39,147 nt of DNA from Planctomycetota bacterium (GTDB lineage: Bacteria > Planctomycetota > MHYJ01 > JACPRB01), in the NCBI GenBank assembly GCA_035649615.1, contig DASRJF010000409.1:1-39147 (forward strand). The letters run 5' to 3'. Position 1 is the stretch's first letter. Every line of letters starts with the position of its first letter. The notes beneath the pieces were generated by a model. That model saw only the letters and a list, made by a program, of their open reading frames with translations, was not told the DNA's origin and ran no database searches. Both the position numbers and the translations under genes were made by a program. Below are positions 3,734 to 32,164 of this stretch, piece after piece.

Positions 3734-3815
3734 CCAAATTGACTTCACTTCAAGGCCTGTCATGCCGATAGGCTCTTGATAGGGGCCGTTCCGCCTAGTG
3801 AGAGGGAGAGGGGAA

Positions 3816-5225
3816 ATGGACTGGGTCCGCCGCTCCGTCGACTCGTTCCAATCCGCGTGGGCGGGCTTTCCCGTCAGCTACCGCGTCCTCACCGGCTTCC
3901 TCCTCGTCCTGCTCGCCCTGGTCGGCGCCTGGGGCGTCAACGCGGCGGGGAAAGAAGGCTGGGTCAAGATCGCCGACGCCGGGGAGTCGCTCGACAAGCG
4001 TGGGCAGATCGTGGCCAAGCTGCGCGAACTGAAGATCAAGACCAAGGTCGAGGGCGACACCATCTTCGTCTTGTCGACCCAGGCCGACGAGGCGATGCTC
4101 CAGCTTCACACGTCCGGTGCCCTCGGAGACGAGCCCTTCTTCAAGTACCTCCAGGAGACGAAAATCTTCGAGACGCGCGCGCAGTCCGACCGCCAGTGGC
4201 TCGTCGCCGTCCAGGGCCGGCTCGCCGCCCTCATCCAGAACCTGCCCTACGTCCGGCGCGCGTGGGTCCAGATCGCGGAGTCCGGCGACGCCAAGAGCCT
4301 GTTCTGGGCGAACGGCCGGGAGGCGACCGCCGCGGTCATCCTCGAACTCAAACCCCACGAGAAGATCACGCCCCGCCGGGCCGCCGGCATCGCGGCGCTC
4401 GTCGCCGCGGCCAGGCCCGACATCAAGCCGACCGGCGTGAAGATCCTCGACGAGACGGGCCAGCTCATCCGGGTCCTGGATTCGGAGTCGTTCGTCAGCC
4501 AGGACCTCCGGTCGCAGGAGTTCGAGATCGCGTCGAGCCTCGAGGCGAAGGCGCTGCTCGTGCTTCCCCACAATTCCCGGGTCGCCGTGACGGTGCGGCT
4601 CAACGCGGAGAGCCGGAAGCTGGAGCAGAAATCGGAGGAGAAGAACGGGGCGCCGCCGGTCGGGATCTCGGAAGGGGGGGACGATCCGGTGGTATCGTCG
4701 ATCCGGCAGAAATCCGAGCAGCGGGACCTGCCGGCGGGATTCAGCATCGAGTTCATTTCGGTCGCGGCCCTGATTCCCGAAACGGCGGGCGATGTGCCCA
4801 GCGGAGCCGGTCCCCGCGCCGCGTTTCTCAGGCAAGTCACCGATGGCCTGCGCAACGCCACGGGGGCGAAGGACAAGGACATTTCGATCCGGATCGCGCC
4901 GCTCCCGGCCTCCGTGTTCACGAACGCGGTTCCCGCGGCGCCCGCTCCGCCGCCGCCCCCGACGGGAATCCGCCTCGACGAACGCGCCGCCCTGCTCGTC
5001 GCGTGCGGGATCCTCGCCCTCGCGGCCGCCTACGGACTCGTGCGGCGCCTGGCGCCCGCGGCGGAGCCCGGGGTCGTGGCGGAAGAGAGCCTGCGCGCCC
5101 CGGGCGAGTCGATCCTCTCCGCGCAGGACGAGGTGCTGGACAAGATCCGCGAGGGCGTGCGGGAATCGGTGGCTCGCAATCCGCGCGAGGCCGCCGACGT
5201 CGCCCGGAGGTGGATGGCGCCGTGA
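3816..5225 (+). CDS. fliF: Flagellar M-ring protein FliF
   Basis: RBS gagggagagggg, then ATG at 3816. N-terminal TM segment (VLTGFLLVLLALVGAWGV). YscJ/FliF-like region (IFVLSTQADEAMLQL, AVQGRLAALIQNLPYVRRAWVQIA, ATAAVILELK). Second TM near the C-terminus (AALLVACGILALAAAYGLV). Sits immediately upstream of fliG. Confidence 0.85.
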   Translation: MDWVRRSVDSFQSAWAGFPVSYRVLTGFLLVLLALVGAWGVNAAGKEGWVKIADAGESLDKRGQIVAKLRELKIKTKVEGDTIFVLSTQADEAMLQLHTSGALGDEPFFKYLQETKIFETRAQSDRQWLVAVQGRLAALIQNLPYVRRAWVQIAESGDAKSLFWANGREATAAVILELKPHEKITPRRAAGIAALVAAARPDIKPTGVKILDETGQLIRVLDSESFVSQDLRSQEFEIASSLEAKALLVLPHNSRVAVTVRLNAESRKLEQKSEEKNGAPPVGISEGGDDPVVSSIRQKSEQRDLPAGFSIEFISVAALIPETAGDVPSGAGPRAAFLRQVTDGLRNATGAKDKDISIRIAPLPASVFTNAVPAAPAPPPPPTGIRLDERAALLVACGILALAAAYGLVRRLAPAAEPGVVAEESLRAPGESILSAQDEVLDKIREGVRESVARNPREAADVARRWMAP

Positions 5226-6244
5226 CGCTGAAATCCCCGCCCGAAGGCCCGGCCCCCGGCGCGCGCCGCGTGGCCGTGCTCCTGTCGTCGCTCGACCTCG
5301 AGTCGGGCCGGACGCTGCTGCGGGAGTTTCCCGCGCCGGAGCGCCAGAAGGTCCTCATCGAAGTCGCCCGTCTCGAGATCGATCCGCCGTCGCGCGACGA
5401 GCTGGAGTCCACGCTGCGCGAGTTCCAGGCGATGCGCGAGACGACCCCCGCGCCGGGACCCGGCGGCCGGGAGGTCGCGCGCGCCCTCGTCGAGGCGGCG
5501 GGGGATCCCGAGGAGCGGCGCCGGCTGCTCGAGCGGATCGAGGCCGCCGTCCAGTCGGTCCCGTTCGGATTCCTCGCGAAGGCGGGGCCGGCCCGCCTGG
5601 CGGAGGCGCTGCGGGACGAGCACCCGCAGACGCTCGCGCTCATCGCGGCCTGCCTTCCGCCCGCCCAGTCCGCGCAGCTGATCGACCGCCTGCCGCTGAA
5701 GACGCAGGTCGAGGCGGTGCGCCGCCTCGCGACGATGGAGCCGATGCCGCCGGAGACGGTGCAACGGATCGAGAAGGCGCTCGAATCCCGGTTCGCGTCG
5801 AAGCGCGACGCCGGATCGCCGTCGCCGGGCGGATTCCGGTCGGCCGCCACCGTCCTGGGCCGGGCCCTGCCGGAAACCAGCCGCCACGTCCTGGCCGAGC
5901 TCGAATCCGACGATCCGGACTTGGCGGAGCAGCTCCGGGAGGCCCTGCTGTCGTTCGACGATTTGAGGGAAGTCGACGATCGCGGGCTCGTCGCGCTGGC
6001 CACGGAGATCGACTTGAAGACGATGGCCGTGGCGCTCAAGTCCCCGGCCCCGGAATTCACCTCGCGCCTCATTCCCGCCCTGGCTCCCGCGGAGGCGGCG
6101 CTCCTCGTCAGCACGATGGATGCCCTGGGGCCCGTGACGTTGCAGGAAATCACGGTGGCGCGACGCAAGATCTCGAGAACGGCGCAATGGCTCGAGGCGC
6201 GCGGGGAGCTCGAAGTGCGCCGCGTTCCCGGAAGGGTGGCTTGA
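5222..6244 (+). CDS. fliG: Flagellar motor switch protein FliG
   Basis: The GTG at 5222 overlaps the fliF stop (GTGA). FliG-like sequence: AVLLSSLDLESGRTLLREF, FGFLAKAGPARLAEALRDEHPQTLALIAACLPP, FDDLREVDDRGLVALATEIDLKTMAVALK, EARGELEV. Confidence 0.9.
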   Translation: MTLKSPPEGPAPGARRVAVLLSSLDLESGRTLLREFPAPERQKVLIEVARLEIDPPSRDELESTLREFQAMRETTPAPGPGGREVARALVEAAGDPEERRRLLERIEAAVQSVPFGFLAKAGPARLAEALRDEHPQTLALIAACLPPAQSAQLIDRLPLKTQVEAVRRLATMEPMPPETVQRIEKALESRFASKRDAGSPSPGGFRSAATVLGRALPETSRHVLAELESDDPDLAEQLREALLSFDDLREVDDRGLVALATEIDLKTMAVALKSPAPEFTSRLIPALAPAEAALLVSTMDALGPVTLQEITVARRKISRTAQWLEARGELEVRRVPGRVA

Positions 6245-6838
6245 ATGGATCCGGTCCGTCCCTTTTACCTGCCGTCGTTCGAGAAGGAGGCCGAGGCGAT
6301 CGTCGCCCGCTCCCGGGAACTGGCGCGCGACCTCACGGTCTCCGCTGCCGCCGAGTCGGTGCGGATCCGCGACGAGGCCCAGCGCGAGGGGTTCGAGCGG
6401 GGACAGGCCGAGGGGCGCGAGCGGGCCCGGCAGGAGGAATCGCGGAAGCTGGGCGACGCCCTCCGGAAGATCCTCGACGAGGTCGAGCGCCACCGGAGCC
6501 GCCTCGTCATGGAATCGGAGCGGGACGTCGTCCGGCTCGCCCTCGCCATCGCCGAGAAGATCGTCAAGGTGGAGGTGAAGCGCGGCAAGGCCGTCGCGGA
6601 GAACAACATCCGCGCCGCCCTCAAGCGCGCGGTCCGCGGTCACGCGCTGGAGATCCGGCTTCATCCGGACGACGCCGCGCGGCTCCGGCCGGCGGGATCG
6701 GAGTCCGACGGCGCGACCATCACGGCCGATCCTTCCATCTCCCCGGGCGGGTGCGTGGTCCGCACGCCGGCGGGCACGGTGGATCTCGACATCAAGACCC
6801 AGCTGGCTGAAATCGAGCGGGGCTTGCTGGGCGAATAG
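6245..6838 (+). CDS. fliH: Flagellar assembly protein FliH
   Basis: ATG directly abuts the fliG stop (TGAATG). Charged coiled-coil N-terminal half. FliH/YscL-like C-terminal half (VVRLALAIAEKIVKVEV...LEIRLHPDDAARL...GGCVVRTPAGTVDLDIKTQLAEIE). Position is between fliG and fliI. Confidence 0.75.
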   Translation: MDPVRPFYLPSFEKEAEAIVARSRELARDLTVSAAAESVRIRDEAQREGFERGQAEGRERARQEESRKLGDALRKILDEVERHRSRLVMESERDVVRLALAIAEKIVKVEVKRGKAVAENNIRAALKRAVRGHALEIRLHPDDAARLRPAGSESDGATITADPSISPGGCVVRTPAGTVDLDIKTQLAEIERGLLGE

Positions 6839-6850
6839 GACGATTCCCGA

Positions 6851-8233
6851 TTGAAGAAATCGCGGACAGCGCACGGCGACTTGCCTATGCAGGAAATACT
6901 CTCGGATCGACCCTTCTCCCTGGAGCCGTACTTCGAGACGCTCTCGCGGCTCGACACCGCGCGCGTCACGGGCCGCGTGCGGCGGGTCGCGGGCCTCATC
7001 GCGGAGTGCGAGGGTCTCACCGCGCCGGTCGGGGCCGTCTGCGCCATCCAGCCCGCGGCGGGGGAGGCGCTGCGCGCGGAAGTCGTGGGATTCCGCGACG
7101 ACGCGACGCTCCTCATGCCGTTCGGCGAAGTCTCGGGCGTCCGCCGCGGAGACGACGTGGTCTGTCTCCAGCTGGCGCCGCGCGTCTCGGTCGGGGACGC
7201 GCTGCTCGGGCGCGTGATCGACGCCGAGGGGAATCCGCTGGACGGCGCGCCGCCTCCCGTCACCGACGAATCGCGGCCGCTCTTCGGAAGGGCGCCGTCG
7301 CCGCTCGACCGGGACCGCATCGTCGAGCCGCTCGCGACGGGCGTGCGCGCGATCGACGCGTTCCACACGTGCGGGCGGGGCCAGAGAATCGGCCTCTTCT
7401 CCGGCTCCGGCGTGGGCAAGAGCGTGCTCCTCGGCATGCTCGCGCGGAGGGCCGCCGCCGATGTCGTGGTGGTGGCGCTCGTGGGCGAGCGCGGGCGCGA
7501 AGTGCGGGAGTTCATCGAGAAGAACCTCGGGCCGGAAGGCCGGGCGCGCGCGGTCGTGGTGGTGGAGACCGCCGAGCGCCCGCCGCTCCTCCGCTTCCGC
7601 GCCGCGTTCGTCGCGACGGCGATCGCCGAGCACTTCCGCGGGCGCGGCCGCCACGTCCTCCTGCTCATGGACTCGCTCACGCGGATGGCGAACGCCCAGC
7701 GCGAGATCGGCCTGTCCGCGGGCGAGCCGCCGGCCACGCGGGGATATCCGCCGTCGGTCTTCGCGACCCTGCCCCGGCTCCTGGAGCGCGCCGGCTCCTC
7801 CAACGGCGGCAGCGTCACCGGGATCTACTCGGTCCTCGTCGAGGGCGACGACCTCAACGAGCCCGTCGCCGACGCCGCGCGCAGCGTGCTCGACGGCCAC
7901 CTCGTGCTCTCGCGGTCGCTGGCGGTCCGCGGCCACTATCCCGCGGTCGACACGCTCGCGAGCGTCTCGCGGCTCATGTCCGACGTCGCGTCCCCCGAGC
8001 ACCGGCGCGCGGCCGCGCGCCTGGCGTCCTTCCTCGCCGTCCACAAGGACGCCGAGGACCTGATCAATGTCGGCGCCTACGTGAAGGGCGCGAATCCCGA
8101 GATCGACCGGGCCCTCGCGGCGCGGCCGGCGATCCTCGGCTACCTGCGGCAGGACGTCGAGGAGTGCGCGGAGTTCGGCGACTCGGTCCGCCGGCTGGTC
8201 GAGCTGGCCGCGGCGAACGGAGATCGCGCATGA
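6851..8233 (+). CDS. fliI: Flagellum-specific ATPase FliI
   Basis: Walker A GLFSGSGVGKSVLLGM, Walker B HVLLLMDSLTRMA, GSVTGIYSVLVEGDDLNEPVAD, HYPAVDTLASVSR. The start is uncertain: TTG at 6851 (AGGA upstream) or ATG at 6887. Confidence 0.95.
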   Translation: MKKSRTAHGDLPMQEILSDRPFSLEPYFETLSRLDTARVTGRVRRVAGLIAECEGLTAPVGAVCAIQPAAGEALRAEVVGFRDDATLLMPFGEVSGVRRGDDVVCLQLAPRVSVGDALLGRVIDAEGNPLDGAPPPVTDESRPLFGRAPSPLDRDRIVEPLATGVRAIDAFHTCGRGQRIGLFSGSGVGKSVLLGMLARRAAADVVVVALVGERGREVREFIEKNLGPEGRARAVVVVETAERPPLLRFRAAFVATAIAEHFRGRGRHVLLLMDSLTRMANAQREIGLSAGEPPATRGYPPSVFATLPRLLERAGSSNGGSVTGIYSVLVEGDDLNEPVADAARSVLDGHLVLSRSLAVRGHYPAVDTLASVSRLMSDVASPEHRRAAARLASFLAVHKDAEDLINVGAYVKGANPEIDRALAARPAILGYLRQDVEECAEFGDSVRRLVELAAANGDRA

Positions 8234-8655
8234 ACCGCCTGGATCGCCTGCTCCGGATCCGGAAGGCGGGCGAGGGGATCGAGCGCGGCCGGTTCGACCG
8301 GGCGCGGCTCGAGGCGGCGGCGCGGCGCGCCGAAACGGAAGCGGCGGCGTCGAAGCGCGACGCGGTGGGGGAAGACGTGCGCGCGCAATCGCGGGGAGCG
8401 ATCGACGTCGCGCGGCTCCGGAGCGCCGCGGATTGCCGCGACGCGATGGCCCGCAGCCTTCTCACGGGAGAGGGCCTCGCCCGGGACGCGGACCGGCGCG
8501 CCGAGGAGCGGAGGCGCCGTCTCGAGGCCGCGAACCGGGAAGTGCGCGCGATCGAGAAGGTCGCCGAACGGCGGGCCGCCGCCGAAACGGCGCGCGCGCG
8601 CGCCGCGGAAACGCGTGAATGCGACGACCGGCCCCGGACCGCGGAGCGCCCGTGA
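8230..8655 (+). CDS. fliJ: FliJ-like flagellar export chaperone (coiled coil)
   Basis: The ATG at 8230 overlaps the fliI stop (ATGA). 141 aa, Arg/Ala/Glu-rich and helical (LLRIRKAGEGIERGRF...LEAANREVRAIEKVAERR). Assignment rests mainly on size, composition and position after fliI. Confidence 0.55.
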   Translation: MNRLDRLLRIRKAGEGIERGRFDRARLEAAARRAETEAAASKRDAVGEDVRAQSRGAIDVARLRSAADCRDAMARSLLTGEGLARDADRRAEERRRRLEAANREVRAIEKVAERRAAAETARARAAETRECDDRPRTAERP

Positions 8656-8969
8656 CGACGCGCCGATTGCGCCCGCCCCCCCAGCGGGGTAGCCTGTCCC
8701 TCATGCCCGACGGCTCCCTTCCGGTTCCGGCGGACGCCCTTCGCGACGTGGAACTCCAGGCGCGCCTCGAGCTCGGCCGCGCCCTCCTGCCGGTGCGCGA
8801 CCTCCTGCAGCTGGGGCCGGGGGCGGTCGTCGAGCTCGACCGCCGCGTGGGAGATCCCGTCGAGCTCTTCGTGAACGACCGCCTCGTCGCGCGCGGGGAG
8901 ATCGTGGTCGCCGGCGGATCGTTCGCGCTGCGCGTCACCGAAGTCCTGGCCCCCACCGATCCCGCTTGA
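8652..8969 (+). CDS. fliN: Flagellar motor switch protein FliN (SpoA domain)
   Basis: SpoA/FliN signature VELQARLELGRALLPVRDLLQLGPGAVVELDRRVGDPVELFVNDRLVARGEIVVAGGSFALRVTEVL. The GTG at 8652 overlaps the fliJ stop (GTGA). The ATG at 8703 is an alternative start. Confidence 0.8.
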   Translation: MTTRRLRPPPQRGSLSLMPDGSLPVPADALRDVELQARLELGRALLPVRDLLQLGPGAVVELDRRVGDPVELFVNDRLVARGEIVVAGGSFALRVTEVLAPTDPA

Positions 8970-9119: not shown

Positions 9120-9144
9120 CATAGTTTACAAAATGTAAACTATG
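9120..9144. promoter_or_regulatory. Perfect 11-bp inverted repeat (operator-like) in an AT-rich patch; TATAAT at 9106-9111
   Basis: catagtttaca-aaa-tgtaaactatg (9120-9144), preceded by agagaTATAATttacac. This is the only strongly AT-rich stretch in the flagellar block. It lies just upstream of, or overlapping, the fliO start candidates (9142/9172). Confidence 0.5.
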
Positions 9145-9171
9145 AGTTGGTTCGAGAGAGGGGAAGAGGGA

Positions 9172-9759
9172 ATGGGTGCACCGCTCCAGGATCCGTCCGT
9201 CCCGGCCGCGCGCGTCGAAATCCCCGCCGAGCTCCTCCGCGAGGAGGTTCCTGCCCCGACGCCCCGGCTCCAGACGCTGAAAAAGTACGAGGACCAGCTG
9301 ATCGGGCAGAACGCCGGGCCCGAGCCCGGCATCGGCGGGGCGCTCGCCGCCACCGCGTTCGTGGTCGCCCTCCTGCTCGGCGCGTTCCTCCTCCTGAGAA
9401 AATTCCTCGGTCGCTCCCGGCTGTTCGCCTCGAACTCCGCGCTTCGCATCCTGGCCCGCCGCCCGCTCGCGCCGAGGCAGGAAGTGATCCTCGTGGAAAT
9501 CGGATCGCGCGTCCTCGTCGTGGGCGCCACGCGGGAATCGCTCTCGCGCCTCGGCGAGCTGACGAGCGCGGACGAGATCGCCGCGATCCGGTCCCGGTGC
9601 GGAGCCGCGCCCGTCGAATCCATCCCGGTCCGCGCCGCGCGTCCCGAACCCGTTCCCGTCGATTCCAAGCCGGGCGCCTCCTACGACGGCGTCCTCGAGG
9701 AACTCTCCAAGCTCCGCACCACGATGCACGACTGGTCCCGGCAGGAGGTGACACCATGA
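9172..9759 (+). CDS. fliO: FliO-like flagellar biosynthesis protein
   Basis: RBS ggggaagaggg, then ATG at 9172 (the alternative ATG at 9142 lies inside the palindrome). One TM segment (GALAATAFVVALLLGAFLLL), then the FliO-like pattern LRILARRPLAPRQEVILVEIGSRVLVVGATRESLSRL. Located upstream of fliP. Confidence 0.6.
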   Translation: MGAPLQDPSVPAARVEIPAELLREEVPAPTPRLQTLKKYEDQLIGQNAGPEPGIGGALAATAFVVALLLGAFLLLRKFLGRSRLFASNSALRILARRPLAPRQEVILVEIGSRVLVVGATRESLSRLGELTSADEIAAIRSRCGAAPVESIPVRAARPEPVPVDSKPGASYDGVLEELSKLRTTMHDWSRQEVTP

Positions 9760-11843: not shown

Positions 11844-12107
11844 ATGGAGTTTGCGACGGACGTGGCGCGCGAGGCGCTCTGGATCGCGGTGAAGATTTCG
11901 CTTCCCGTCCTCGCCGTCGGGCTGGCCGTGGGCCTGGTCGTGGCGATCCTCCAGGCGGCCACGCAGGTCCAGGAGTCGTCGCTCACGTTCCTCCCCAAGA
12001 TGCTCGCGATCGTCCTGACGCTGGCCCTGCTGATGCCGTGGATGCTGTCGGTGCTGGTCGAGTACGCCCGGAGGCTGATCTCGGGATTTCCCGGGATGAC
12101 GATGTGA
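11844..12107 (+). CDS. fliQ: Flagellar export apparatus protein FliQ
   Basis: 87 aa with two TM segments. FliQ-like LWIAVKISLPVLAVGLAVGLVVAILQAATQVQESSLTFLPKMLAIVLTL. Confidence 0.9.
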   Translation: MEFATDVAREALWIAVKISLPVLAVGLAVGLVVAILQAATQVQESSLTFLPKMLAIVLTLALLMPWMLSVLVEYARRLISGFPGMTM

Positions 12108-12113
12108 CCGGAC

Positions 12114-12896
12114 ATGAACGCGATGGGAATCGAGAACTCGCCTTTCTTCGTGCTGCTGGCCATCCGCTTCGGCGGGCTGGTCGTGTCGGCGCCCCTGTTC
12201 GGCAGCCCTCCGGTTCCGCTGCCGTTGCGGGGCGCGCTGGCGATCCTCCTGGCCTTTCTCTTCACGCCGCTGGCGGGGCCTTCGACGGGAGCGACGTGGA
12301 CGGCGGGAGCGTTCGTCCTCGCGGCGGCCGCGGAAGGCGCCGTCGGACTCCTCATCGGGTTCACGGCGTCGCTGCTCTTCGCGGCGGTCCGGCTGGCCGG
12401 GCACCTCGTGGACCAGGACATGGGCCTCTCGCTCGCGGCGGTCCTCGATCCGGTCACGGGCGAGCCGGTGTCGATCGTGGGCCAGTTCCAGGGGCTGCTC
12501 GCCCTGGTGGTGTACCTCGTCATCAACGGCCATCACATCCTGCTGACGGCGGTGGCCGAGAGCCTTCGCGTCCTGCCGGTGGGCGGCGGGATCGGGTCCC
12601 CGGGCGCGGGCCCGGGCCTCGTCGGGGACATGGCCGCGGGCCTGTTCGGGGTGGCCCTGACGCTCGCGATTCCCGCCCTGGCCACGCTCTTCCTCGTCAC
12701 GGTGGCGATGGCGTTCCTCGCCCGCGGCGTTCCGGAGATGAATCTCCTCGCGCTCGGCTATCCGATGCGGACGCTCGTGGGAATGGCCGCGCTCGCGGTC
12801 AGCGTGGGGTACTTCGTGCGGGCGTTCGCGAAGCTGGCTTCGGACCAGGAGGGGATCCTGCGGGGTCTCGTGGGAATGCTCGGGGGAAGGCCGTGA
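12114..12896 (+). CDS. fliR: Flagellar export apparatus protein FliR
   Basis: 260 aa, polytopic. FliR-like FVLLAIRFGGLVVSAPLFGS, AAEGAVGLLIGF, RLAGHLVDQDMGLSLAAVLDP, LVVYLVINGHH. Follows fliQ. Confidence 0.9.
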   Translation: MNAMGIENSPFFVLLAIRFGGLVVSAPLFGSPPVPLPLRGALAILLAFLFTPLAGPSTGATWTAGAFVLAAAAEGAVGLLIGFTASLLFAAVRLAGHLVDQDMGLSLAAVLDPVTGEPVSIVGQFQGLLALVVYLVINGHHILLTAVAESLRVLPVGGGIGSPGAGPGLVGDMAAGLFGVALTLAIPALATLFLVTVAMAFLARGVPEMNLLALGYPMRTLVGMAALAVSVGYFVRAFAKLASDQEGILRGLVGMLGGRP

Positions 12897-13249: not shown

Positions 13250-14298
13250 TGACTGAAACCGAAGTCGAGGACCGGACGGAAGCCCCGACCCCGCGGCGGC
13301 TCCGGGAGGCCCGCAAGAAGGGACAGGTCGCGGTGAGCCGCGATCTCGCCGCCGCGCTGGCGCTGCTGGCCACGGCCGGCGGTCTTCACCTGCTCGGACC
13401 TTGGCTGATGGCCGGACTTCGCGCGGGACTGGGGCGCTCGCTGTCGGGACTTCATGAAATGAACTCCGCGGAGGCCGCCGTTTCCGCGCTGGGCCTCGGC
13501 GGGGAAATGATGGGCGCCGCGGCGCCGATCCTGGTCTTCGCCCTGGCCGCCGGCGTCCTCGCGACGCTGACGCAGGTGGGTTTCATCTTCACGACCGAGA
13601 CCCTCAAGCTCCAGCCGGACCGCCTGGATCCCCTCGGCGGATTCCGGCGCGCGTTCTCCATGCAAACGTTCGTCGGAATCGCGGGAGGCCTGGCCAAGGG
13701 CGCGGTCATCCTGGGAATCCTCGCCGCCTCGCTCTGGCAGGAGCGCGCGACGCTCGCCGGATTGTCAACGCGGCCCCTCTCCGAGGGACTCGCGGTCCTC
13801 ACGGGGTCCGCCGCGGCCCTGTTCACCAAGACCGCGCTCGCCCTGCTCGCGCTCGGAGTGGTCGACTGGGCGTACCGGCGCTGGCAGCACCTCCGCGACC
13901 TGCGGATGAGCCGTCGCGAAGTCCAGGACGAGCTGAGGGAATTCGAGGGCGATCCCGAGATCAAGCGTCGCCGCCGGTCCCACCACGCGCAGCTCGACGA
14001 GACGCGCATGCTCGCGCACGTCCCCGGCGCGCTCGCGGTCGTCACCGACGACGGCGATGTCGCGGTCGCGCTCGGAGGGGAGGGCGGGACGCCGGTCGTC
14101 CTGGCGAAGGCTCGCGGGGCGGTCGCGGACCGGATCCGCGAAACGGCGCTCGGCCACGGCATCCCCGTGCTGGAACGGGCGGACCTGGCCCGGGGGCTCA
14201 ACCGGCGCGGGAAGTCCGGCTCGGAAGTGCCGTCGGGCCTTCGCGAGGGGGCGGCGGAAGTCCTGGCGGTGGCGCGCGAGATGAAAGGCAACGGATGA
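13246..14298 (+). CDS. flhB: Flagellar export switch protein FlhB (NPTH motif replaced by DDGD)
   Basis: The ATG at 13246 gives the N-terminus MMTETEVEDRTEAPTPRRLREARKKGQVAVSRDL. Four TM segments. MSRREVQDELREFEGDPEIKRRRR. C-terminal domain ALAVVTDDGDVAVAL...PVVLAKARGAVADRIRETALGHGIPVLERADLARGL. Confidence 0.9.
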   Translation: MMTETEVEDRTEAPTPRRLREARKKGQVAVSRDLAAALALLATAGGLHLLGPWLMAGLRAGLGRSLSGLHEMNSAEAAVSALGLGGEMMGAAAPILVFALAAGVLATLTQVGFIFTTETLKLQPDRLDPLGGFRRAFSMQTFVGIAGGLAKGAVILGILAASLWQERATLAGLSTRPLSEGLAVLTGSAAALFTKTALALLALGVVDWAYRRWQHLRDLRMSRREVQDELREFEGDPEIKRRRRSHHAQLDETRMLAHVPGALAVVTDDGDVAVALGGEGGTPVVLAKARGAVADRIRETALGHGIPVLERADLARGLNRRGKSGSEVPSGLREGAAEVLAVAREMKGNG

Positions 14299-16367
14299 CG
14301 TTCGACCGGATGACGGACGGGGTGACGAAGCACCGCGACCTGCTTTTTGTCGCGGGGCTCCTCGGCATCCTGTTCATCGTCTTCGTTCCGATGCCGACGC
14401 CGCTCGTCGACCTCCTGCTCGTGGGGTCGATGGGCCTGTCGATCATGGTCCTCCTCGCGTCGGTCTACGCGAAGGAGCCCGCGGGCTTCTCGGTCCTGCC
14501 CTCGGCGCTCCTGCTCCTGACCGCGTACCGGCTCGCCCTGAACATCGCGACCACGCGCCTCATCCTGGGCACGGCGCACGAGCGGGGCACGTCGGCGGCG
14601 GGCGAAGTCATCCGGGCCTTCGGCGAGTTCGTGGGAGGGCACGACCTCATCGTCGGATTCGTCCTCTTCGCGATCCTGCTGATCGTGAACTTCATCGTCA
14701 TCACGAAGGGCGCGGGTCGCATCTCGGAAGTCGCCGCCCGATTCATGCTCGATGCCATGCCCGGCAAGCAGATGGCCGTGGACACGGACCTGAACTCCGG
14801 GGCCATCGACGAGAAAGAGGCGCGGGCGCGGCGCGCGAAGATCGCCAAGGAGGCCGACTTCTACGGCGCGATGGACGGCGCGACGAAATTCGTCCGGGGC
14901 GACGCCATCGCGGCGGTCCTGATCACGCTGGTCAACATCATCGGGGGCTTCCTGATCGGAACCCTGCGCCACGGCATGCCGCTCTCGGAGGCCCTGCAGA
15001 CCTACACGATCCTGACGATCGGCGAAGGCCTCGTCGCCCAGATCCCCGCCCTGATCGTCTCCCTCGGGGCGGGCCTCATCGTGACGCGCGCCACGACGTC
15101 GTCCGATCTCGGCCGCGATTTCCTCGGCCAGATCTTCTCCGAGCGCAAGGCCGTCGCGATCGCCGCGATTTTCCTCCTGGTTCTCGCGCCGACGGGCCTT
15201 CCGTTCCTGCCGCTCGCGGCGGGAGCGGGCCTGCTCGGCGCGATCGTCTGGACGCTCGGCCGCGGCGCGAAGGCCGCCGAGAAGCGCGAAGCCGACCAGC
15301 GCTCCCTCGACGCCGCCGCGCCTCCCGCCCCGGTGTCGGCGGAGCGGCTGCTGCGCGTGGAGCCGCTGGAGATCGAGGTCGGCCTGGGCCTCGTCCGCCT
15401 CCTCGACGCCGGGTACGGACTCGTCGCCCGCATCGAGGCGCTCCGCCGGGAGCTGGCGGCCGACCTCGGCCTGCTCGTGCCCGCGGCGCGGGTCCGCGAC
15501 ACCCTGGACCTCGAATCGACCCACTACCGGATCCGGCTCCGCGGCGTGACGATCGCGAAAGGCGCCCTCCAGGCGGAACGGCTCCTCGCCGTCGACACGG
15601 GCCGCGTGAGCGGACCCCTCGAGGGACTCGCGACGCGCGATCCGATCCAGGGACGCCCGGCCTTCTGGATTTCGGAAGCCGGGCGATCGGAGGCGGAAGG
15701 GTCGGGCTATCGCGTGAGCGACGCGGTGTCCGTCCTCCACGACCACCTGCGCGACGTGCTGCGTCGGAACGCCGCGGACCTGCTGACGCGGGACGACGTC
15801 ACCGCCCTGGTGAAGTCCCTCAAGGAGGCCCGTCCCGCGGTTGTCGAGGAAGTCGTCCCGGCGGTCGTCCGGCCGGGCGAGCTCCAGAAGGTGCTCCGGA
15901 ACCTGCTCCGCGAGGGGGTCTCGATCCGCGACCTGGGGACGATCCTCGAGACTCTGGGAGATTACGGCCCGCGCACGAAGGACCCCGAGATCCTCACGGA
16001 ATACGTCCGCCAGGGACTGGCCGGAACCCTGTGCGCCCGCCACCTGGATCCGGACGGCCGGCTGTACGTCATCACGCTCGATCCGAAGCTCGAGGACATG
16101 ATCCGGGGCGCGACGGAGCGGAACGAGTCCGGCTCCGTCCTGGCGATCGCGCCGTCGCTCCTGGCCGGCATTACGCAGCGCGTGGGTCGCGAGGTCGACC
16201 GCCTGGTCGCCGCCGGACATGCCGCGGTGATCCTCTGCGCCCCCGCGGTCCGGGCGCAGGTCCGCCGGCTGGCCGACATGATCCAGCCCGGGATCGAGGT
16301 CCTGTCCTTCAACGAGATCCTCAGGGACGTTCGCGTCGAGGCATTGGGAATGGTCACCGCGGAGTGA
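14295..16367 (+). CDS. flhA: Flagellar export gate protein FlhA
   Basis: The ATG at 14295 overlaps the flhB stop (ATGA). 690 aa. FVGGHDLIVGFVLFAILLIVNFIVITKGAGRISEVAARFMLDAMPGKQMAVDTDLNSGAIDE, FYGAMDGATKFVRGDAIA. Large cytoplasmic C-terminal domain. Confidence 0.95.
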   Translation: MTFDRMTDGVTKHRDLLFVAGLLGILFIVFVPMPTPLVDLLLVGSMGLSIMVLLASVYAKEPAGFSVLPSALLLLTAYRLALNIATTRLILGTAHERGTSAAGEVIRAFGEFVGGHDLIVGFVLFAILLIVNFIVITKGAGRISEVAARFMLDAMPGKQMAVDTDLNSGAIDEKEARARRAKIAKEADFYGAMDGATKFVRGDAIAAVLITLVNIIGGFLIGTLRHGMPLSEALQTYTILTIGEGLVAQIPALIVSLGAGLIVTRATTSSDLGRDFLGQIFSERKAVAIAAIFLLVLAPTGLPFLPLAAGAGLLGAIVWTLGRGAKAAEKREADQRSLDAAAPPAPVSAERLLRVEPLEIEVGLGLVRLLDAGYGLVARIEALRRELAADLGLLVPAARVRDTLDLESTHYRIRLRGVTIAKGALQAERLLAVDTGRVSGPLEGLATRDPIQGRPAFWISEAGRSEAEGSGYRVSDAVSVLHDHLRDVLRRNAADLLTRDDVTALVKSLKEARPAVVEEVVPAVVRPGELQKVLRNLLREGVSIRDLGTILETLGDYGPRTKDPEILTEYVRQGLAGTLCARHLDPDGRLYVITLDPKLEDMIRGATERNESGSVLAIAPSLLAGITQRVGREVDRLVAAGHAAVILCAPAVRAQVRRLADMIQPGIEVLSFNEILRDVRVEALGMVTAE

Positions 16368-16370
16368 TTG

Positions 16371-17492
16371 ATGCTCATCAAGAAATACGCCGGGGCGAAT
16401 GAGAAGGCCGTGCTCGCGCGCGTCCGCGCCGATCTCGGTCCGGACGCGGTGATCCTCCACTCGAGCCTGGTCCGCCCCGCGGGGCTGGCCCGGCTTTTCC
16501 GGGGGCCGCGGTTCGAGGTCGTCGCGGGCGGCGGCTTCCGCATCGTGCGCGACTACCCGAACGGATCGCCGCCGGTCTCGCCCCCGACGATCCGGAGGGG
16601 CGCGGCGGCGCCGGCGATCTCTCCCGAGCAGCTCCAGAAGGAGATTTCGGAGATCAAGGCGATGATCGCCCGTCGCGCGCGCGCGGCGGCCCTCACGTCG
16701 GCCACGCCCGAGCTCCACGAGGAGTTCGCGGCGCTCTCGACCGCCCGGGTGTCGGACGACCTGGCGCGATCGCTGTTCCAGCGGATCACGGAGCGCCTCT
16801 CCGCCGCCGCCCTCCGCGACCGGACGGCCATCCGGGAGGCGATCCGCGGCGCGGTGAAGGCGTCGATCAAGTGCGCCGACGGCATCGCCCTCCAGCCGGG
16901 CCGGTGCGTCAAGGTCGCCTTCATCGGCCCCACGGGCGTCGGCAAGACGACGACGATCGCCAAGCTGATCTCGATCTACGCCTACCGGGGACAGGAAGTC
17001 GCGGTCGTGACGAACGACACCTACCGGATCGCGGCCTCCGAGCAGATCAAGCGCGTGGCCCAGCTCGTGGGCGTCCCCGTCCGCGTCTGCCGCACGGGGC
17101 CCGAGATGACGGAGGCCGTGCAGGGCTTCTCGGACCGGGACCTGGTCCTCATCGACACCGCCGGCCGCAGCCAGAAGGACGACGGGAAGATCGACGACCT
17201 GTGCGCCACGCTCAAGTCGGCCGCGCCCGACGAGGTCCACCTGGTCCTCAGCTCGACGACGAACTCCGAGACGCTCGTGGACACCGTGAAGCGCTTCTCG
17301 CCCTGCGGCTTCACCAAGATCGTCATCACGAAGCTCGACGAGGCGATGAAAGTCGGGCTCGTCCTGGACGTCCTGTCGAAGGTCGACAAGCGCCTGTCGT
17401 TCATCACGACCGGGCAGGAGATTCCCCGCGACATCGAGATCGCGGACAGCGACCGCATGACGTCGCTGATCCTCGGGGAGGAGACGCTGTGA
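16371..17492 (+). CDS. flhF: Flagellar SRP-type GTPase FlhF
   Basis: ATG at 16371 (the track start at 16368 is TTG). G-motifs FIGPTGVGKTTTIAKL, LIDTAGRS, ITKLDE. Follows flhA. Confidence 0.9.
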   Translation: MLIKKYAGANEKAVLARVRADLGPDAVILHSSLVRPAGLARLFRGPRFEVVAGGGFRIVRDYPNGSPPVSPPTIRRGAAAPAISPEQLQKEISEIKAMIARRARAAALTSATPELHEEFAALSTARVSDDLARSLFQRITERLSAAALRDRTAIREAIRGAVKASIKCADGIALQPGRCVKVAFIGPTGVGKTTTIAKLISIYAYRGQEVAVVTNDTYRIAASEQIKRVAQLVGVPVRVCRTGPEMTEAVQGFSDRDLVLIDTAGRSQKDDGKIDDLCATLKSAAPDEVHLVLSSTTNSETLVDTVKRFSPCGFTKIVITKLDEAMKVGLVLDVLSKVDKRLSFITTGQEIPRDIEIADSDRMTSLILGEETL

Positions 17493-18412
17493 ATCCCTCC
17501 ACGGTGGCCCGTCGCGACTTCGGCAAGATCGTTCCCGCCGAACCCGATCGCAATGCCGCGCGCGACCAGGCCGACGGCCTGCGCCGGATCTCGGGATTCC
17601 GCCGGCGCGCGGCGCGCGTCCTGGCCGTGACCAGCGGCAAGGGCGGCGTGGGGAAGACGAATCTCTCCGTCAATCTCGGCCTCGCGCTCGCCGCGACGGG
17701 GAGCCGGGTCGTGATCGTGGACCTCGATCTCGGCCTCGCCAACGCGGACATCCTGTTCGACATCGCGACCCGGTACAACCTGGCCGACGTGATCTCCGGC
17801 CGCCGGTCGTTGGACGAGGTGCTGGTCCAGGCGGCCCCGGGGCTGCGGATCGTGCCGGGCGCGTCGGGCGTCGAGCGGCTGGCCAACCTGGGCGAGGCGG
17901 AGCGGCAGGCCCTCGTGGCCGGGCTCGATTCGCTCTGCGCGGACGCCGACTTCGTGATCTGCGACACCGGCGCGGGGATCTCGCGGAACACGACGTCGTT
18001 CCTCGCCGCGGCCGACGAGGTGCTGATCGTCACGACGCCGGAGCCGACGGCCGTCGTCGACGCGTACGCGGTCATCAAGCTCATCGCCCTGTCGGGCGAC
18101 CACGGCGACCTCGGCCTGGTGATCAACATGGCGGAAAACGCGGAGGAGGCGCGGCGGTTCTCGCACGGGATCGCGATCACGGCGAACAAGCTCCTTAACG
18201 CGTACGTGGCGGAGCTCGGGTTCATCCTGCGCGACCCGAACGTGGCGCAGTCCGTGCGGAAGCGCCGGCCGGTCTTCCTCGAGCATCCCCATTCGCCGGC
18301 CAGCCGGGGGATCCGGGACCTGGCGTCGCGGATCGTGGCCGGGGCCGCGCCCGGGGCGGGCGGGGAGCGCGTGAGTTTCGTGCGGAGGCTGCTGGGGGCG
18401 CTGGGGCGGTGA
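17489..18412 (+). CDS. flhG: MinD/ParA-type ATPase FlhG (FleN/YlxH)
   Basis: The GTG at 17489 overlaps the flhF stop (GTGA). Deviant Walker A LAVTSGKGGVGKTNLSVNLG, VVIVDLDLGLANADILF, FVICDTGAGIS. Follows flhF. Confidence 0.85.
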   Translation: MNPSTVARRDFGKIVPAEPDRNAARDQADGLRRISGFRRRAARVLAVTSGKGGVGKTNLSVNLGLALAATGSRVVIVDLDLGLANADILFDIATRYNLADVISGRRSLDEVLVQAAPGLRIVPGASGVERLANLGEAERQALVAGLDSLCADADFVICDTGAGISRNTTSFLAAADEVLIVTTPEPTAVVDAYAVIKLIALSGDHGDLGLVINMAENAEEARRFSHGIAITANKLLNAYVAELGFILRDPNVAQSVRKRRPVFLEHPHSPASRGIRDLASRIVAGAAPGAGGERVSFVRRLLGALGR

Positions 18413-18416
18413 AGTC

Positions 18417-18662
18417 ATGGAGAAGAAGCTCGGCGCCATCCTGGGGATTCTCGCGGCGGCCGCGGTGATCTTCGCGGGGGTGTCGCACGGCGTGCCGGCC
18501 GGGGAGACGCTCGTGCGGGCCGCGGTGGCGTTCGCGGCGGGGGGGCTGGTCGGCTGGCTGGTCTTCGGCAAGCTCGGGGCGGCATTGATGCGGGAGGCGG
18601 CGGGTTCGGAACGCAAGGATTCCGAAGGATCTGGAACGGAAAACGGTGAACGCAACGGTTGA
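18417..18662 (+). CDS. Small two-TM membrane protein, unknown function
   Basis: 81 aa: LGAILGILAAAAVIFAGV and AVAFAAGGLVGWLVFGKLGAAL, with a charged Gly/Ser/Glu tail. Lies between flhG and fliA. Its 3' end runs into an ACGG-heptamer array. Confidence 0.45.
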   Translation: MEKKLGAILGILAAAAVIFAGVSHGVPAGETLVRAAVAFAAGGLVGWLVFGKLGAALMREAAGSERKDSEGSGTENGERNG

Positions 18663-18705: not shown

Positions 18706-19482
18706 ATGGCTCTGGTGACGAAACGGCCGAAGGAAGAGCTGACGCGCCTCTGGGGTGAGTTCAAGCGCGGCGGCGACGTGGCGATCCGGAACATCCTCGC
18801 GGAGGAGTACCTTCCGATCGTCAAGTACGTGGCCGACCGCATGATCGAGCGGTTGCCGCACAACGTCCAGGTCGAGGACCTGTGCGGGTCCGGGATGTTC
18901 GGGCTGCTCGACGCGATCGACAAGTTCGACATGTCGCGCGGCGTGAAGTTCGAGACGTACTGCGTGGGCCGCATCCGGGGCTCGATCCTGGACGACCTGC
19001 GGAACATGGACTGGGTGCCGCGCCTCACCCGCGCGCGCTCGAACAAGCTCGAGGCCGCGTACGTCAAGCTGGAGCGCGAGCTCGGCCGCGCCCCGACCGA
19101 CGTCGAGGTCTCCCGCGAGATGAAGATCTCGATCGAGGAGCTCGACAGCCTCCACCGCGAGGTGAGCGGCGCCTCGATGATCCCGATCGTCCACCGCCCC
19201 CTCGAGAAGGAGCAGGAGCCGCTCGGCGTCGACGTCATGGAGGATCCGCGGGTCGAGGGCCCCCTCTCCGACTCCGCGAAGCGCGACTTCCTCGAGTTCT
19301 GCCACAAGAAGCTGTCGACGAAGGAGCGGAACATCCTGAGCCTGTACTACTACGACGATTTGACACTCAAGGAGATCGGCCGTATTTTGGGCCTCTCGGA
19401 ATCGCGCGTGTGCCAGCTGCATGCGAAGCTCGTCACCCGGTTGAGAGCCTACCTGGCCCGATCCCAAGGAGAATCCAGCTAG
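18706..19482 (+). CDS. fliA: Flagellar sigma factor FliA (sigma-28, FliA/WhiG family)
   Basis: Region 2 YLPIVKYVADRM...EDLCGSGMFGLLDAIDKFDMSRGVKFETYCVGRIRGSILDDLR. Region 4 LSTKERNILSLYYYDDLTLKEIGRILGLSESRVCQLHAKLVTRLR. RBS gaggggggg upstream. Confidence 0.9.
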   Translation: MALVTKRPKEELTRLWGEFKRGGDVAIRNILAEEYLPIVKYVADRMIERLPHNVQVEDLCGSGMFGLLDAIDKFDMSRGVKFETYCVGRIRGSILDDLRNMDWVPRLTRARSNKLEAAYVKLERELGRAPTDVEVSREMKISIEELDSLHREVSGASMIPIVHRPLEKEQEPLGVDVMEDPRVEGPLSDSAKRDFLEFCHKKLSTKERNILSLYYYDDLTLKEIGRILGLSESRVCQLHAKLVTRLRAYLARSQGESS

Positions 19483-22927: not shown

Positions 22928-23012
22928 CTTCCACTGGCGGAGCAGTGGGTCCTATAAGTCTGATACTCACGTCCGATAAGGCCGCTACCGTTGCGCTGTC
23001 TACCGTGGCCGG

Positions 23013-23051
23013 AAACAAAAAGAGCCGCGCCTGATCCATCAAGCGCGGCTC
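23013..23051 (-). terminator. Intrinsic-terminator-like hairpin (minus strand) in the left island junction
   Basis: gagccgcgc (23022-23030) / gcgcggctc (23043-23051): a perfect 9-bp stem with a 12-nt loop. On the minus strand it is followed by TTTTTGTTT (complement of 23013-23021). Confidence 0.45.
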
Positions 23052-23589
23052 GACGTCCGCTTTCTCGGCGGCGACCGGAGGTTGCCCATTCTTCGGCTCC
23101 GCCCGGCTGCCTAGCAGCCCATTGCTCTATGTCGTTCCTCACTTCCTGGCGTCGTCCTCCCTGAAGATCCCCCGCCTTCACAAGCGCCCTCGTCCAAACT
23201 CGGCTGACCCCGAACCCGACCGGGCCGGGCGCTACCGCGTCCCGAACCCCCTCCAGGAGGGCCTGGGCAGGTACACCTAGCTTGATGTCGTCACACTCTA
23301 GCCGGCTCTCCCAAAGCCGCAACTTTTCAAAGATACCAGCTTCACAGCATAGCATTTCGCCATCCGTGGACTTGACGGCATCGAAATTCGCATTAAAGCC
23401 GTAATCACCGCCCTTCCGACCAAACCGTCCTTACACTGCGTTAATGTCGTTCCTTCATTTACCTCGAATCTTCAAAACGGCACTCATAGACCCATGTTCT
23501 TTAGCGTAGGATCTCAGTACCACTTCCAAATCCTCGCAAGCTGGAAGATTGTTCCGGCGCACATGAACACCGAATCGTGATAGATCACG

Positions 23590-24651
23590 TTAGTCCTCTT
23601 CCCTGCGAAGGACTCGTTCTGCCATCGCAGCGAGCCGCTCTCCATTGCCAGTGGCCTTCATGCGCGCCGCATAATCTCCAATTGCTTTTCGCATCTGAAT
23701 AGAGTTATTCGAGGATCGCAATAGCGCCCGAAGCGCCGCGCCACCAGCAAACTCATCCTCTGCCCTAAGCTTTGACAGTAGCTCAATAATCACCCCTTCT
23801 CCACCCCCGCTGGGGTCCTTCAAGATGAGACGTACGATAAACTCAACAAAGACATTGTCGTCCCGTAGCAAGTACTGTACCAAGAGTGTGTATTGGGTTC
23901 GAATCGGCTCAAACGGACCATTTCCGTTGGAGGTAAGTTTTTCAAGAAGCGTGTAGATGATGGGTGAATAGTATCTCGGGCCTGTCGGCCCGAGGAGAAA
24001 ACTGAGCAGCTCCTTCATGTCCAGGTCACTTGGCGGTGGTGTCAGAGTCCGGCAAGGGCACTTGACGGTGTGCGAAACGCGAAATCCAACTCCATATGGC
24101 AGCACTTCATCCGCGCGGCGACTTGGATACTCTATGCGCAGGTGCAAATCTCCCAGGCTTGCGATTGCCCCTTGCCTCACCCACTCGTGTTGGTCAGATT
24201 TGACTATCGAGAGAAGCAGATCTATGGAGGCGCGATGGAAACTGGCACACTCGCTGCCCCACACAGGTATGACTGTCCGTACATGGACCACCTTGTATAC
24301 AAGTTCCTGTAGACTCTCTACGGGTCTTCGCACCACTTCCAAGGTGAATTCACTTGGTACCCTCGATCCCATCAAGCAAGAGGTCTTATAATCCTCGTAT
24401 GCCGCCTTTGCGACGGCTTCGAGTTGTGGAAAGAAAGTGGTGGACCGGAATTCGCTTTCCGGAATCTTTGTGATTGATTCTACATCTAGCCTTGAGGGCT
24501 GGGAAGGCTGAGTGGCAGCTGCACCGGCCCTAATTCCTTGCGAGGGATCGCCGTATACAGGGGTCGGGCGGCGGCATGCAGGCAATACAAGTACGAACAG
24601 AGTGAGGCCAATCCTAGACACGGTCAACGCGGACTTCCTAAATACTATCAT
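23590..24651 (-). CDS. Island gene I: probable lipoprotein with helical (ARM/HEAT-like) repeats
   Basis: The ATG at 24651 gives MIVFRKSALTVSRIGLTLFVLVLPAC (lipobox-like LPAC). The C-terminal two thirds are helix-rich (LLSFLLGPTGPRYYSPIIYTLLEKL, LLVQYLLRDDNVFVEFIVRLIL, IIELLSKLRAEDEFAGGAALRALLRS). Confidence 0.6.
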   Translation of the reverse strand: MIVFRKSALTVSRIGLTLFVLVLPACRRPTPVYGDPSQGIRAGAAATQPSQPSRLDVESITKIPESEFRSTTFFPQLEAVAKAAYEDYKTSCLMGSRVPSEFTLEVVRRPVESLQELVYKVVHVRTVIPVWGSECASFHRASIDLLLSIVKSDQHEWVRQGAIASLGDLHLRIEYPSRRADEVLPYGVGFRVSHTVKCPCRTLTPPPSDLDMKELLSFLLGPTGPRYYSPIIYTLLEKLTSNGNGPFEPIRTQYTLLVQYLLRDDNVFVEFIVRLILKDPSGGGEGVIIELLSKLRAEDEFAGGAALRALLRSSNNSIQMRKAIGDYAARMKATGNGERLAAMAERVLRREED

Positions 24652-24696
24652 GATAGTGGCCGAAACGTGCGCACATGTAGCCAATATTCGGATTGA

Positions 24697-25884: not shown

Positions 25885-26036
25885 TAACCACCCTTACTAC
25901 AGAGTCTTACGATCTGTGGATTCCCATTCCGGAGCATGAAAACTCCGTCGTCTTACGTATGTTACTGATTTCCTCTCCCACTTGTCATCTAAATGGTCCT
26001 CGTCGTGCAAATACCGCATACCTCGCTTGTCGGCGG

Positions 26037-27458: not shown

Positions 27459-27594
27459 TAGTGTCCTTAGCAATAAGATCTTTCTCATGCACAGAATCAA
27501 CCATGACTAGCGCTGTTTGGCACAATGCCAGTCTCTTCTCAATTAATAACTAGACACAGGGACCGCACTTTGGGGTCATATTCCGGTAGCATAG

Positions 27595-29055: not shown

Positions 29056-29145
29056 GTGCTTTTTGCCATCACTAGCCGTTATGACACTCAGAGGGCAATG
29101 AGATCCCAACGCGCATTTCACCATGCACTTCGCGCGGCACATGCC

Positions 29146-30505: not shown

Positions 30506-30520
30506 CGAGTCCTCCTTTCG

Positions 30521-30853: not shown

Positions 30854-30854
30854 T

Positions 30855-32162: not shown

Positions 32163-32164
32163 TC

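Follow-up and report, generated by a model that had tools for sequence, protein, structure and literature searches.

What does a flagellar-type export apparatus do with an FlhB protein that cannot cleave itself? Autocleavage at the Asn-Pro-Thr-His (NPTH) loop is treated as a near-universal trait of FlhB/SctU proteins, without which type III export could not proceed in order. The question is raised by a contig of 39,147 nucleotides from a Planctomycetota bacterium (GenBank DASRJF010000409.1; this whole stretch is called the window below), in which the flhB gene of a flagellar operon encodes Asp-Asp-Gly-Asp (DDGD) at the position of NPTH. We find that the loss of the motif is a trait common to a whole lineage, far beyond chance. 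The reading that we favor, with somewhat more confidence than doubt, is that the operon encodes a flagellum-derived export apparatus with a single export mode, which neither switches from hook to filament substrates nor rotates; given a single mode, there would be no hook-to-filament switch for FlhB cleavage to serve.

The open reading frame (ORF) of flhB starts at GTG 13207 or ATG 13246 and ends at 14298. We number FlhB residues from ATG 13246, which is the gene-caller start of the database versions with 350 amino acids (P0001 and P0056). This ATG overlaps the stop codon of the upstream gene (ATGA), and the flhB stop codon overlaps the flhA start. The predicted protein is matched by PF01312 over model positions 1-334 of 335, and it scores below the NCBIfam cut-offs for both the flagellar FlhB equivalog (TIGR00328, 246.6 bits against 349.25) and SctU (TIGR01404, 228.1 bits against 358). 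The N-terminal four-helix membrane domain and the FlhBc-fold C-terminal domain that mark the FlhB/SctU family are present and the gene neighborhood is that of the family (fliP-fliQ-fliR-X117-flhB-flhA, X117 being a small gene described below), but the N-P-T-H loop is missing. At its position, the codons 14047-14058 (GAC GAC GGC GAT) read D-D-G-D in the flhB frame. In phmmer alignments to full-length FlhB chains from the PDB, those of Salmonella and Vibrio among others, VVTDDGDVAVAL is aligned opposite IVTNPTHYSVAL and IVTNPEHFSVAL, that is, 'vvtDDGDvaval' faces 'ivtNPTHysval' and 'ivtNPEHfsval', and the alignment is free of gaps around the site. When 139 other FlhBs are aligned by MAFFT, DDGD falls into the column of NPTH, again without a gap across the site. 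The codons and both kinds of alignment thus agree with the preliminary description of this DNA, which had assigned DDGD to residues 268-271 and had proposed an alignment with curated families as a check; no N-P-x-H-like motif was found elsewhere in the C-terminal domain of the window FlhB. A search for a second or split flhB had been proposed as well. By tblastn only one FlhB C-terminal domain was detected per locus, a result that covers the window and the relatives' loci in view.

A 90%-identity cluster of the window FlhB comprises seven variants, drawn from assemblies of JGI, ENA, Logan and NCBI (P0006 represents the one NCBI relative, GCA_035762625.1), and all seven carry DDGD. Since these assemblies are independent, a sequencing error at the site, which would have undone the earlier observation, is excluded. 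Homology search added 18 FlhBs at 54-69% identity, the next matches being at 36% or less, and Asn-Pro is missing in 18/18 of them. Their loops include TDAGD, TDSGD, TDSED, TDDAD, TDDRD, ADERE, TDTSD, TADD, TAED and IGGSC, some of the loops being one residue shorter. The clade loop can be described as a short, variable and mostly acidic beta-turn, T-D-x-x-D/E, with Asp at position 268 in 19/23 clade entries and Asp or Glu at position 271 in 21/23. The metagenome scan yielded five clade loci, all shorter than 6 kb, and longer relatives were reached through GatB and FlhA searches. The deeper relatives found through FlhA are a 91-kb JGI contig (L165) and two ENA contigs of 50 and 39 kb (L166 and L167), the FlhAs of which are 77-80% identical to that of the window; the FlhBs of L165 and L166 read DAAD and DSEN, again without Asn-Pro.

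Outside the clade the motif is retained. A scan of one genome per GTDB species found no clade members among the species representatives, only distant FlhBs that keep NPTH; all 80 recovered FlhB loci retain Asn-Pro (NPTH in 65, NPTE in 8, NPTR in 3, and NPTA, NPLR, NPVR and NPVH in one each). The pooled genome and metagenome comparison set includes nine loci from Planctomycetota and Phycisphaerae. Asn is found in 139/139 of its FlhBs and Pro likewise in 139/139; a caveat against our reading is that the set is rich in Maricaulis and Hyphomonadaceae, so that these counts are not phylogenetically independent. The nearest outgroup, a Planctomycetota metagenome-assembled genome (MAG) with FlhA 59% identical to that of the window (L168), also keeps NPTH. 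What had been described as a peculiarity of one gene is therefore a property of the whole lineage, and FliG and FlhA are changed alongside FlhB, as described below. Our literature searches turned up no report of a naturally occurring FlhB that lacks NPTH, and nothing specific on Planctomycetes with NPTH or on degenerate flagella.

Because there is no Asn to cyclize, no Pro and no His, canonical N|PTH autocleavage of the window FlhB cannot take place, judging from its predicted protein; on this point the preliminary description was right. FlhB would remain in one uncleaved piece, as do the laboratory mutants FlhB(N269A), YscU(N263A) and EscU(N262A). These mutants and FlhB(P270A) belong to the same family, share the fold and lack the cleavage Asn or Pro, and assembly of the apparatus and export of early substrates continue in them (PMC3708937, PMC3189125, PMC4620466). 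The non-cleaving Salmonella FlhB(N269A) is locked in the rod/hook mode (PMC3708937), and P270A gives polyhooks (PMC13639345). The statement that cleavage is required for the switch in substrate specificity needs the nuance that in SpaS cleavage is not the switching signal itself, but confers the competence to switch (PMC4620466). The laboratory mutants differ from the clade in that one engineered substitution cripples an otherwise complete flagellum or injectisome, whereas in the clade the whole loop is replaced, the replacement is naturally fixed, and further losses in the C-terminal domain as well as changes in FlhA and FliG accompany it.

The fold of FlhB is predicted to be unaffected. An AlphaFold2 model built from a 52-sequence alignment has a mean predicted local distance difference test (pLDDT) score of 90.8 and contains strand beta1 (residues 264-268), the DDGD turn and strand beta2 (residues 272-279). 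In Foldseek searches of the PDB, the C-terminal domain matches FlhBc, YscUc, EscUc and CT091 with target template modeling scores of 0.69-0.90 and a root-mean-square deviation of 1.1-1.5 A for the closest matches, and the membrane domain matches FlhB within the FliPQR-FlhB complex. The best structural matches include structures of uncleaved single-chain mutants. In the model, then, the FlhB fold is kept and the cleavage loop is turned into what looks like an ordinary hairpin turn.

The distribution of constraint along FlhB is shifted. Among sequence pairs at 55-75% overall identity, clade FlhBs (215 pairs) are 64% identical in the membrane domain, 80% in the linker and 53% in the C-terminal domain, and other FlhBs (762 pairs) 54%, 86% and 77%, respectively. 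The ratio of C-terminal to membrane domain identity is 0.84 in the clade versus 1.46 elsewhere; thus, the least conserved part of clade FlhB is the switch domain, the reverse of other FlhBs. The ratio of nonsynonymous to synonymous substitution rates (dN/dS), estimated by NG86, is 0.16-0.30 for the membrane domain and 0.24-0.64 for the C-terminal domain and stays below 1 in every domain, values that are rough, as dS is near saturation in most clade pairs. The least saturated and most reliable pair (L081-L084) gives 0.16 for the membrane domain, 0.04 for the linker and 0.25 for the C-terminal domain. By these estimates, the gate-binding membrane domain is kept under purifying selection, and so is the C-terminal domain, but less tightly. 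The relaxed positions include the Tyr of the 'ALxY' motif (139/139 in other FlhBs, variable in the crown of the clade), the Ala-Pro equivalent to Salmonella A286-P287 (136/139 and 139/139 in others) and Gly293 (139/139 in others), and an Arg has become invariant in the crown at a helix-4 position (Arg333, Table 1). The changes in FlhB look stepwise, since the basal relatives L165 and L166 still have 'ALRY' (Tyr279) and carry His, not Arg, at the helix-4 position.

The second altered protein is FlhA, in which window residue n-7 corresponds to Salmonella residue n across the stretch in question. Residues D456, F459 and T490 belong to the FlhA dimple, at which chaperones dock with filament-type substrates; F459 and T490 are needed to dock the complexes of the chaperones FlgN, FliS and FliT (PMC8166844), and roles have been assigned to the residues of the F459/A489/T490 site (PMC8166844, PMC13639345). 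The window FlhA has D, Q and D at the D456, F459 and T490 equivalents and so lacks the dimple signature. Thr at the T490 position is found in 63/69 outgroup Planctomycetota FlhAs and in 0/14 clade FlhAs; Phe at the F459 position is present in 69/69 outgroup FlhAs and gone in all ten crown members of the clade. The A489-T490 pair is altered in every clade FlhA, the crown members having His, Arg or Val at the first position and Asp or Glu at the second. The GYXLI motif of FlhA was considered as an extra marker and is not relied on here, its Tyr being found in only 44/69 outgroup proteins.

The third altered protein is FliG. According to Lloyd and Blair, in work of 1997, R281, D288, D289 and R297 of E. 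coli FliG are reportedly the torque-generating charges. We aligned the window FliG to Thermotoga FliG (PDB 1lkv) and then to the 82 nearest cluster representatives from a library of 1.84 billion proteins. Among these representatives the four positions are R in 71/82, E or D in 74/82, E or D in 77/82, and R or K in 70/82. At the same positions the FliGs of the window, L165 and L166 have A/S/A, S/H/L, T/E/E and T/T/T, respectively, so that the charges are lost at 4/4 positions in the window and at 3/4 in L165 and L166. No motA or motB is in view either. The FliG representatives closest to that of the window (P0302-P0306, 35-45% identity) have also lost the torque charges in part, the torque segment of P0304 being NLPDSAAATLEREIESLGPVT; this partial loss hints at a wider group of similar systems.

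The operon that contains these genes has the order fliFGHIJ-fliN-fliO-HEAT-fliPQR-X-flhBA-flhFG-small membrane protein-fliA, several genes being joined by 4-bp start/stop overlaps (Table 1). It thus holds the genes of the flagellar MS ring, C ring, ATPase complex and export gate (fliF, fliG, fliH, fliI, fliJ, fliN, fliO, fliP, fliQ, fliR, flhB, flhA). FliP, FliN, FlhF and FliA pass their NCBIfam cut-offs, FlhA misses its own by 1.2 bits (770.9 against 772.1; 558.7 with the SctV model), and the components turned toward the rod, the stator or the switch (FliF, FliG and FlhB) score far short of theirs. FlhA, FliP and FliN score higher with flagellar than with Sct models, and FliG, FlhF and FliO are flagellum-specific. 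No SctC secretin, SctD, needle or translocon genes were found in the window, and the locus does not qualify as an injectisome.

The same gene order, including the HEAT-repeat gene and X117, was found in every clade locus that covers the relevant stretch, and synteny holds in relatives down to 77% FlhA identity (the clade spans 76-87%). Both genes are shared by all clade loci, and the outgroup loci L168 and L086 have neither. X117 has no match in Pfam or NCBIfam, and its product begins with a hydrophobic segment resembling a signal peptide or a membrane anchor; it and the HEAT-repeat protein may be new parts of the apparatus. FlhA, FliP, FliI and FlhF are 84-92% identical to the window copies within the clade. 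The most conserved operon protein is FlhF (91-92% identity versus 63-68% for FlhB), which is unexpected for a placement factor if the placed structure is reduced.

The DNA in view amounts to about 39 kb of the window genome and 22-33 kb of each relative, about 100 kb of clade DNA in total. No rod, hook, fliK, fliM, fliL, stator, junction or filament genes were found in the window or in the relatives' loci. In the Phycisphaerae-type operon L086, fliK-flgD-flgE-motA-motB-fliL sits between fliJ and fliN; in the window fliJ and fliN overlap exactly where L086 carries these six genes, and tblastn with the L086 FliK, FlgD, FlgE, MotA, MotB and FliL found nothing in the window or in about 60 kb of relatives' DNA. 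The basal relative L166 has an extra gene between fliJ and fliN (3870-4433) that is absent from the window and from L165; its 187-amino-acid product is membrane-anchored and looks rich in coiled coils.

Table 1. Features of the window, with positions counted from its first letter (aa, amino acids).
Feature	Position	Strand	Remarks
fliF, MS-ring protein, strongly diverged	3798-5225	+	PF01514; NCBIfam 54 bits, cut-off 129.75
fliG	5222-6244	+	FliG_N, FliG_M, FliG_C; NCBIfam 164.8 bits, cut-off 226.7
FliG torque-helix segment APAEAALLVSTMDALGPVT	6083-6139	+	A, S, T, T at the equivalents of E. coli R281, D288, D289, R297
fliH, export ATPase complex	6245-6838	+	
fliI, export ATPase complex	6851-8233	+	
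fliJ, export ATPase complex	8230-8622	+	
fliN	8619-8969	+	overlaps fliJ
fliO	9142-9759	+	
HEAT-repeat gene, about 368 aa	9756-10862	+	clade-specific, between fliO and fliP
fliP	start 10856, 10877 or 10895; end 11692	+	
fliQ	11844-12107	+	
fliR	12114-12896	+	
X117, 118 aa	12893-13249	+	clade-specific, between fliR and flhB, 4-bp overlap with both
flhB, 350 aa	13246-14298	+	PF01312 full-length match, E = 2e-84
FlhB C-terminal cytoplasmic domain, about residues 215-350	13888-14295	+	AlphaFold2, Foldseek; cleavage/switch hallmarks gone
DDGD codons, FlhB residues 268-271	14047-14058	+	position of the NPTH autocleavage loop; predicted tight beta1-beta2 turn
FlhB Arg333 codon	14242-14244	+	helix-4; invariant Arg in crown clade, Tyr/Phe/Trp in 132/139 others
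flhA	14295-16367	+	PF00771
FlhA codons Q452 (15648-15650), H482 (15738-15740), D483 (15741-15743)	15648-15743	+	equivalents of Salmonella F459, A489, T490
flhF	16368-17492	+	
flhG/MinD-like gene	17489-18412	+	
Small membrane protein gene	18417-18662	+	
FliA/WhiG-family sigma factor gene	18706-19482	+	
Low-GC insertion, 10.5 kb	23000-33550		
Homologue of the 420-aa gene of L165 and L166	33586-34794	-	
gatB	36381-37829	-	

How are the changes in the three proteins to be read together? In a single-mode apparatus, FlhB would have become fixed as an uncleavable single chain with the rest of its switch domain relaxed, FlhA would have lost, with Thr490 and Phe459, the dimple for the chaperones of late, filament-type substrates, and the loss of the charges by which FliG contacts the stator would mean that the apparatus no longer rotates. 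Ring, gate, ATPase and placement genes, fliA and the genes for two lineage-specific proteins, all in one operon, would then provide for single-mode export, although the apparatus may also act mainly as a polar scaffold. The high conservation of the ATPase complex and the gate within the clade argues that export is active and that the apparatus is no dead relic. A number of observations weigh against this reading, and most of them favor instead a complete working flagellum with its other genes elsewhere in the genome. Its switching would be independent of cleavage, through compensating changes in FlhA and perhaps FliK that would lower the barrier to remodeling of the FlhA ring. The weightiest of these observations is that the contigs show only part of each genome. 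In the outgroup L168 the block starts at fliO and the other flagellar genes lie in several separate loci; since dispersed genes are normal in the phylum, an operon that lacks hook, rod and filament genes is no proof of their genome-wide absence. FliA (sigma-28 family), FlhF and FlhG, which are typical of real builders of polar flagella, are retained and highly conserved, and FliG keeps its FliM-binding EHPQ motif even though fliM was not seen in the DNA covered, a hint that partner genes lie elsewhere. The FlhB equivalents of Salmonella A341 and L344, which form the pocket for early substrates, are still hydrophobic. The four basal clade members retain Phe459 of FlhA, and in two basal FlhAs (P0191, and P0192 at L166 10001-12076) the A489-T490 pair has become Glu-Ala. 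In Salmonella, FlhA(A489E) is an extragenic suppressor that partly restores filament-type export to the cleavage-defective FlhB(P270A) (PMC13639345). The basal members thus combine the same Glu with a non-cleaving FlhB, as a natural co-occurrence and with T490 changed in addition, whereas the crown has His, Arg or Val at position 489 and has lost F459. The match could be coincidental because the outgroup itself varies moderately at position 489 (Ala 47, Ser 13 and Thr 6 of 69), but the basal pattern as a whole (Phe459, Tyr279, A489E-like) fits compensation, not loss. The suggestion in the preliminary description that switching might work differently here therefore stays a live rival, with unexpected support from the A489/T490 changes. 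We nevertheless regard a complete flagellum as unlikely. Crown FlhAs without Phe459 and Thr490 are unexpected if filament proteins are exported, and so is a working motor with three or four of the four FliG torque charges gone; no hook, rod or stator gene occurs in the roughly 100 kb of clade DNA, and the constraint on the FlhB C-terminal domain is relaxed, not redirected, apart from Arg333.

The other explanations are much less probable than either of these. Non-canonical cleavage of FlhB, in which the Asp268 side chain would attack its own peptide bond, as might happen in an Asn-to-Asp variant, is very improbable. Peptide bonds can be broken through cyclic anhydrides of Asp, classically at Asp-Pro, and the loop is not random, given the frequency of acidic residues at positions 268 and 271. 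Yet Pro never follows Asp268, the next residue being Ala, Ser, Asp or Gly. The His is missing as well, and four clade proteins lack Asp268 altogether (TADD, TAED and IGGSC are among their loops). In published crystal structures, EscU and YscU with the N-to-D mutation form single chains (3bzr and 2w0r), and the only partial cleavage of EscU P263A (PMC3189125) also counts against this chemistry. A decaying relic, with non-functional flagellar genes heading for loss, has slightly less to recommend it still, even if hallmark residues are gone from FlhB, FliG and FlhA and if FliF, FliG and FlhB score under their family cut-offs. All 17 operon genes are intact, several with 4-bp start/stop overlaps, their order is kept in the relatives, and FlhA, FliP, FliI and FlhF are strongly conserved; dN/dS nowhere reaches 1, the fold of FlhB is modeled with confidence, and two new, conserved genes have been added to the operon. 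Between the two outcomes that the preliminary description had offered besides altered switching, the evidence thus sides with functional divergence and, in view of the intact coupled operon, the synteny and the dN/dS values, against degeneration. We attach next to no weight to an artefact, be it an error of sequencing or assembly or an NPTH hidden by misalignment: the codons are identical in independent assemblies, the 18 diverged relatives share the loss, phmmer and MAFFT alignments are gap-free at the site, and the model puts DDGD at the beta1-beta2 turn.

The single-mode reading can be carried one step further, to an independent conversion of a flagellar export apparatus, parallel to the origin of the injectisome, into a single-mode machine for secretion or scaffolding that does not rotate. 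We put this forward tentatively, as a possible history that falls short of being the probable one. NPTH of FlhB would have been lost while FlhA gained A489E and T490A; later the FlhA dimple, the remaining switch residues of FlhB and the FliG torque charges would have gone, and the HEAT-repeat protein and X117, with its apparent signal peptide, would have joined as new parts. The steps of such a conversion would still be readable in the living relatives. If the apparatus is indeed hook-less and non-rotating, it would be a second, independently repurposed flagellar export core and would bear on the origin of injectisomes. Since the clade has lost the motif, remains intact and under selection, and is changed in FlhA at the suppressor site, it offers a natural experiment on the switch, in which the parts of FlhB needed for gate function are separated from those that serve switching only. 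It also tests the coupling of the A489/T490 region of FlhA to the state of the FlhB C-terminal domain.

Among known systems, the canonical Planctomycetota and Phycisphaerae loci (L168, L086, L001 and L005 among others) share with the window the order fliO-P-Q-R-flhB-flhA-flhF-flhG-x-fliA and have FlhAs 46-60% identical to that of the window, but they keep NPTH or NPTE as well as F459 and T490 of FlhA and lack the HEAT-repeat gene and X117. Non-motile Buchnera keeps flagellar basal bodies as putative protein exporters. The concept is the same, an export apparatus without motility, but Buchnera is an insect endosymbiont and has kept its hook and rod genes. The 'Myxo' type III secretion loci of Myxococcales are compact and conserved, have neither motility components nor a secretin, and were argued to be functional inner-membrane translocators, not relics (Abby and Rocha 2012, PMC3459982). 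They belong to the non-flagellar (Sct) branch, while the window operon is flagellar (FliG, FliO, FlhF, FlhG and FliA present; FlhA 771 bits versus 559 with SctV) and would have a separate origin. These flagellar-type scores argue against membership in the 'Myxo' group, and the likeness would be one of principle only. Several FlhB matches that are presumably myxobacterial-like keep NPTH or NPTR.

FlhB homologues without Asn-Pro were also found outside the clade. P0046 (L169, 7269-13212), which is unrelated to the clade, lies in a compact fliN-x-fliP-Q-R-flhB-flhA block that adjoins ftsH, lptE and bamD, and the FlhA of L169 is likewise without F459 and T490. Loss of Asn-Pro together with loss of FlhA F459/T490 is thus seen in two independent lineages, the clade and L169, and motif loss may recur in reduced systems. 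Isolated flhB-like genes without Asn-Pro are present beside unrelated genes in L170 (4747-5757) and L171 (5710-6732).

The window belongs to an uncultured, high-GC lineage related to Planctomycetota. This placement rests on named matches of GatB and FlhA: the best named relatives of the window GatB are Planctomycetes or Planctomycetota MAGs at 60-70% identity, and the FlhA outgroup matches at 49-60% identity bear the same names. Judging by their sample identifiers, the contigs of several relatives appear to stem from metagenomes of soil or rhizosphere. Scans of the window for tRNA genes and Rfam families found no element. The low-GC insertion (Table 1) has a GC content of 49-58%, against about 70% on both sides, and holds seven ORFs of 304-515 amino acids, all on the minus strand, with no match in Pfam or PADLOC and no homologue in the loci of the relatives. 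The insertion may be an island of recent acquisition. In L165 and L166 a class-III aminotransferase gene adjoins a gene for a 420-amino-acid protein, the homologue of which in the window lies close to the insertion.

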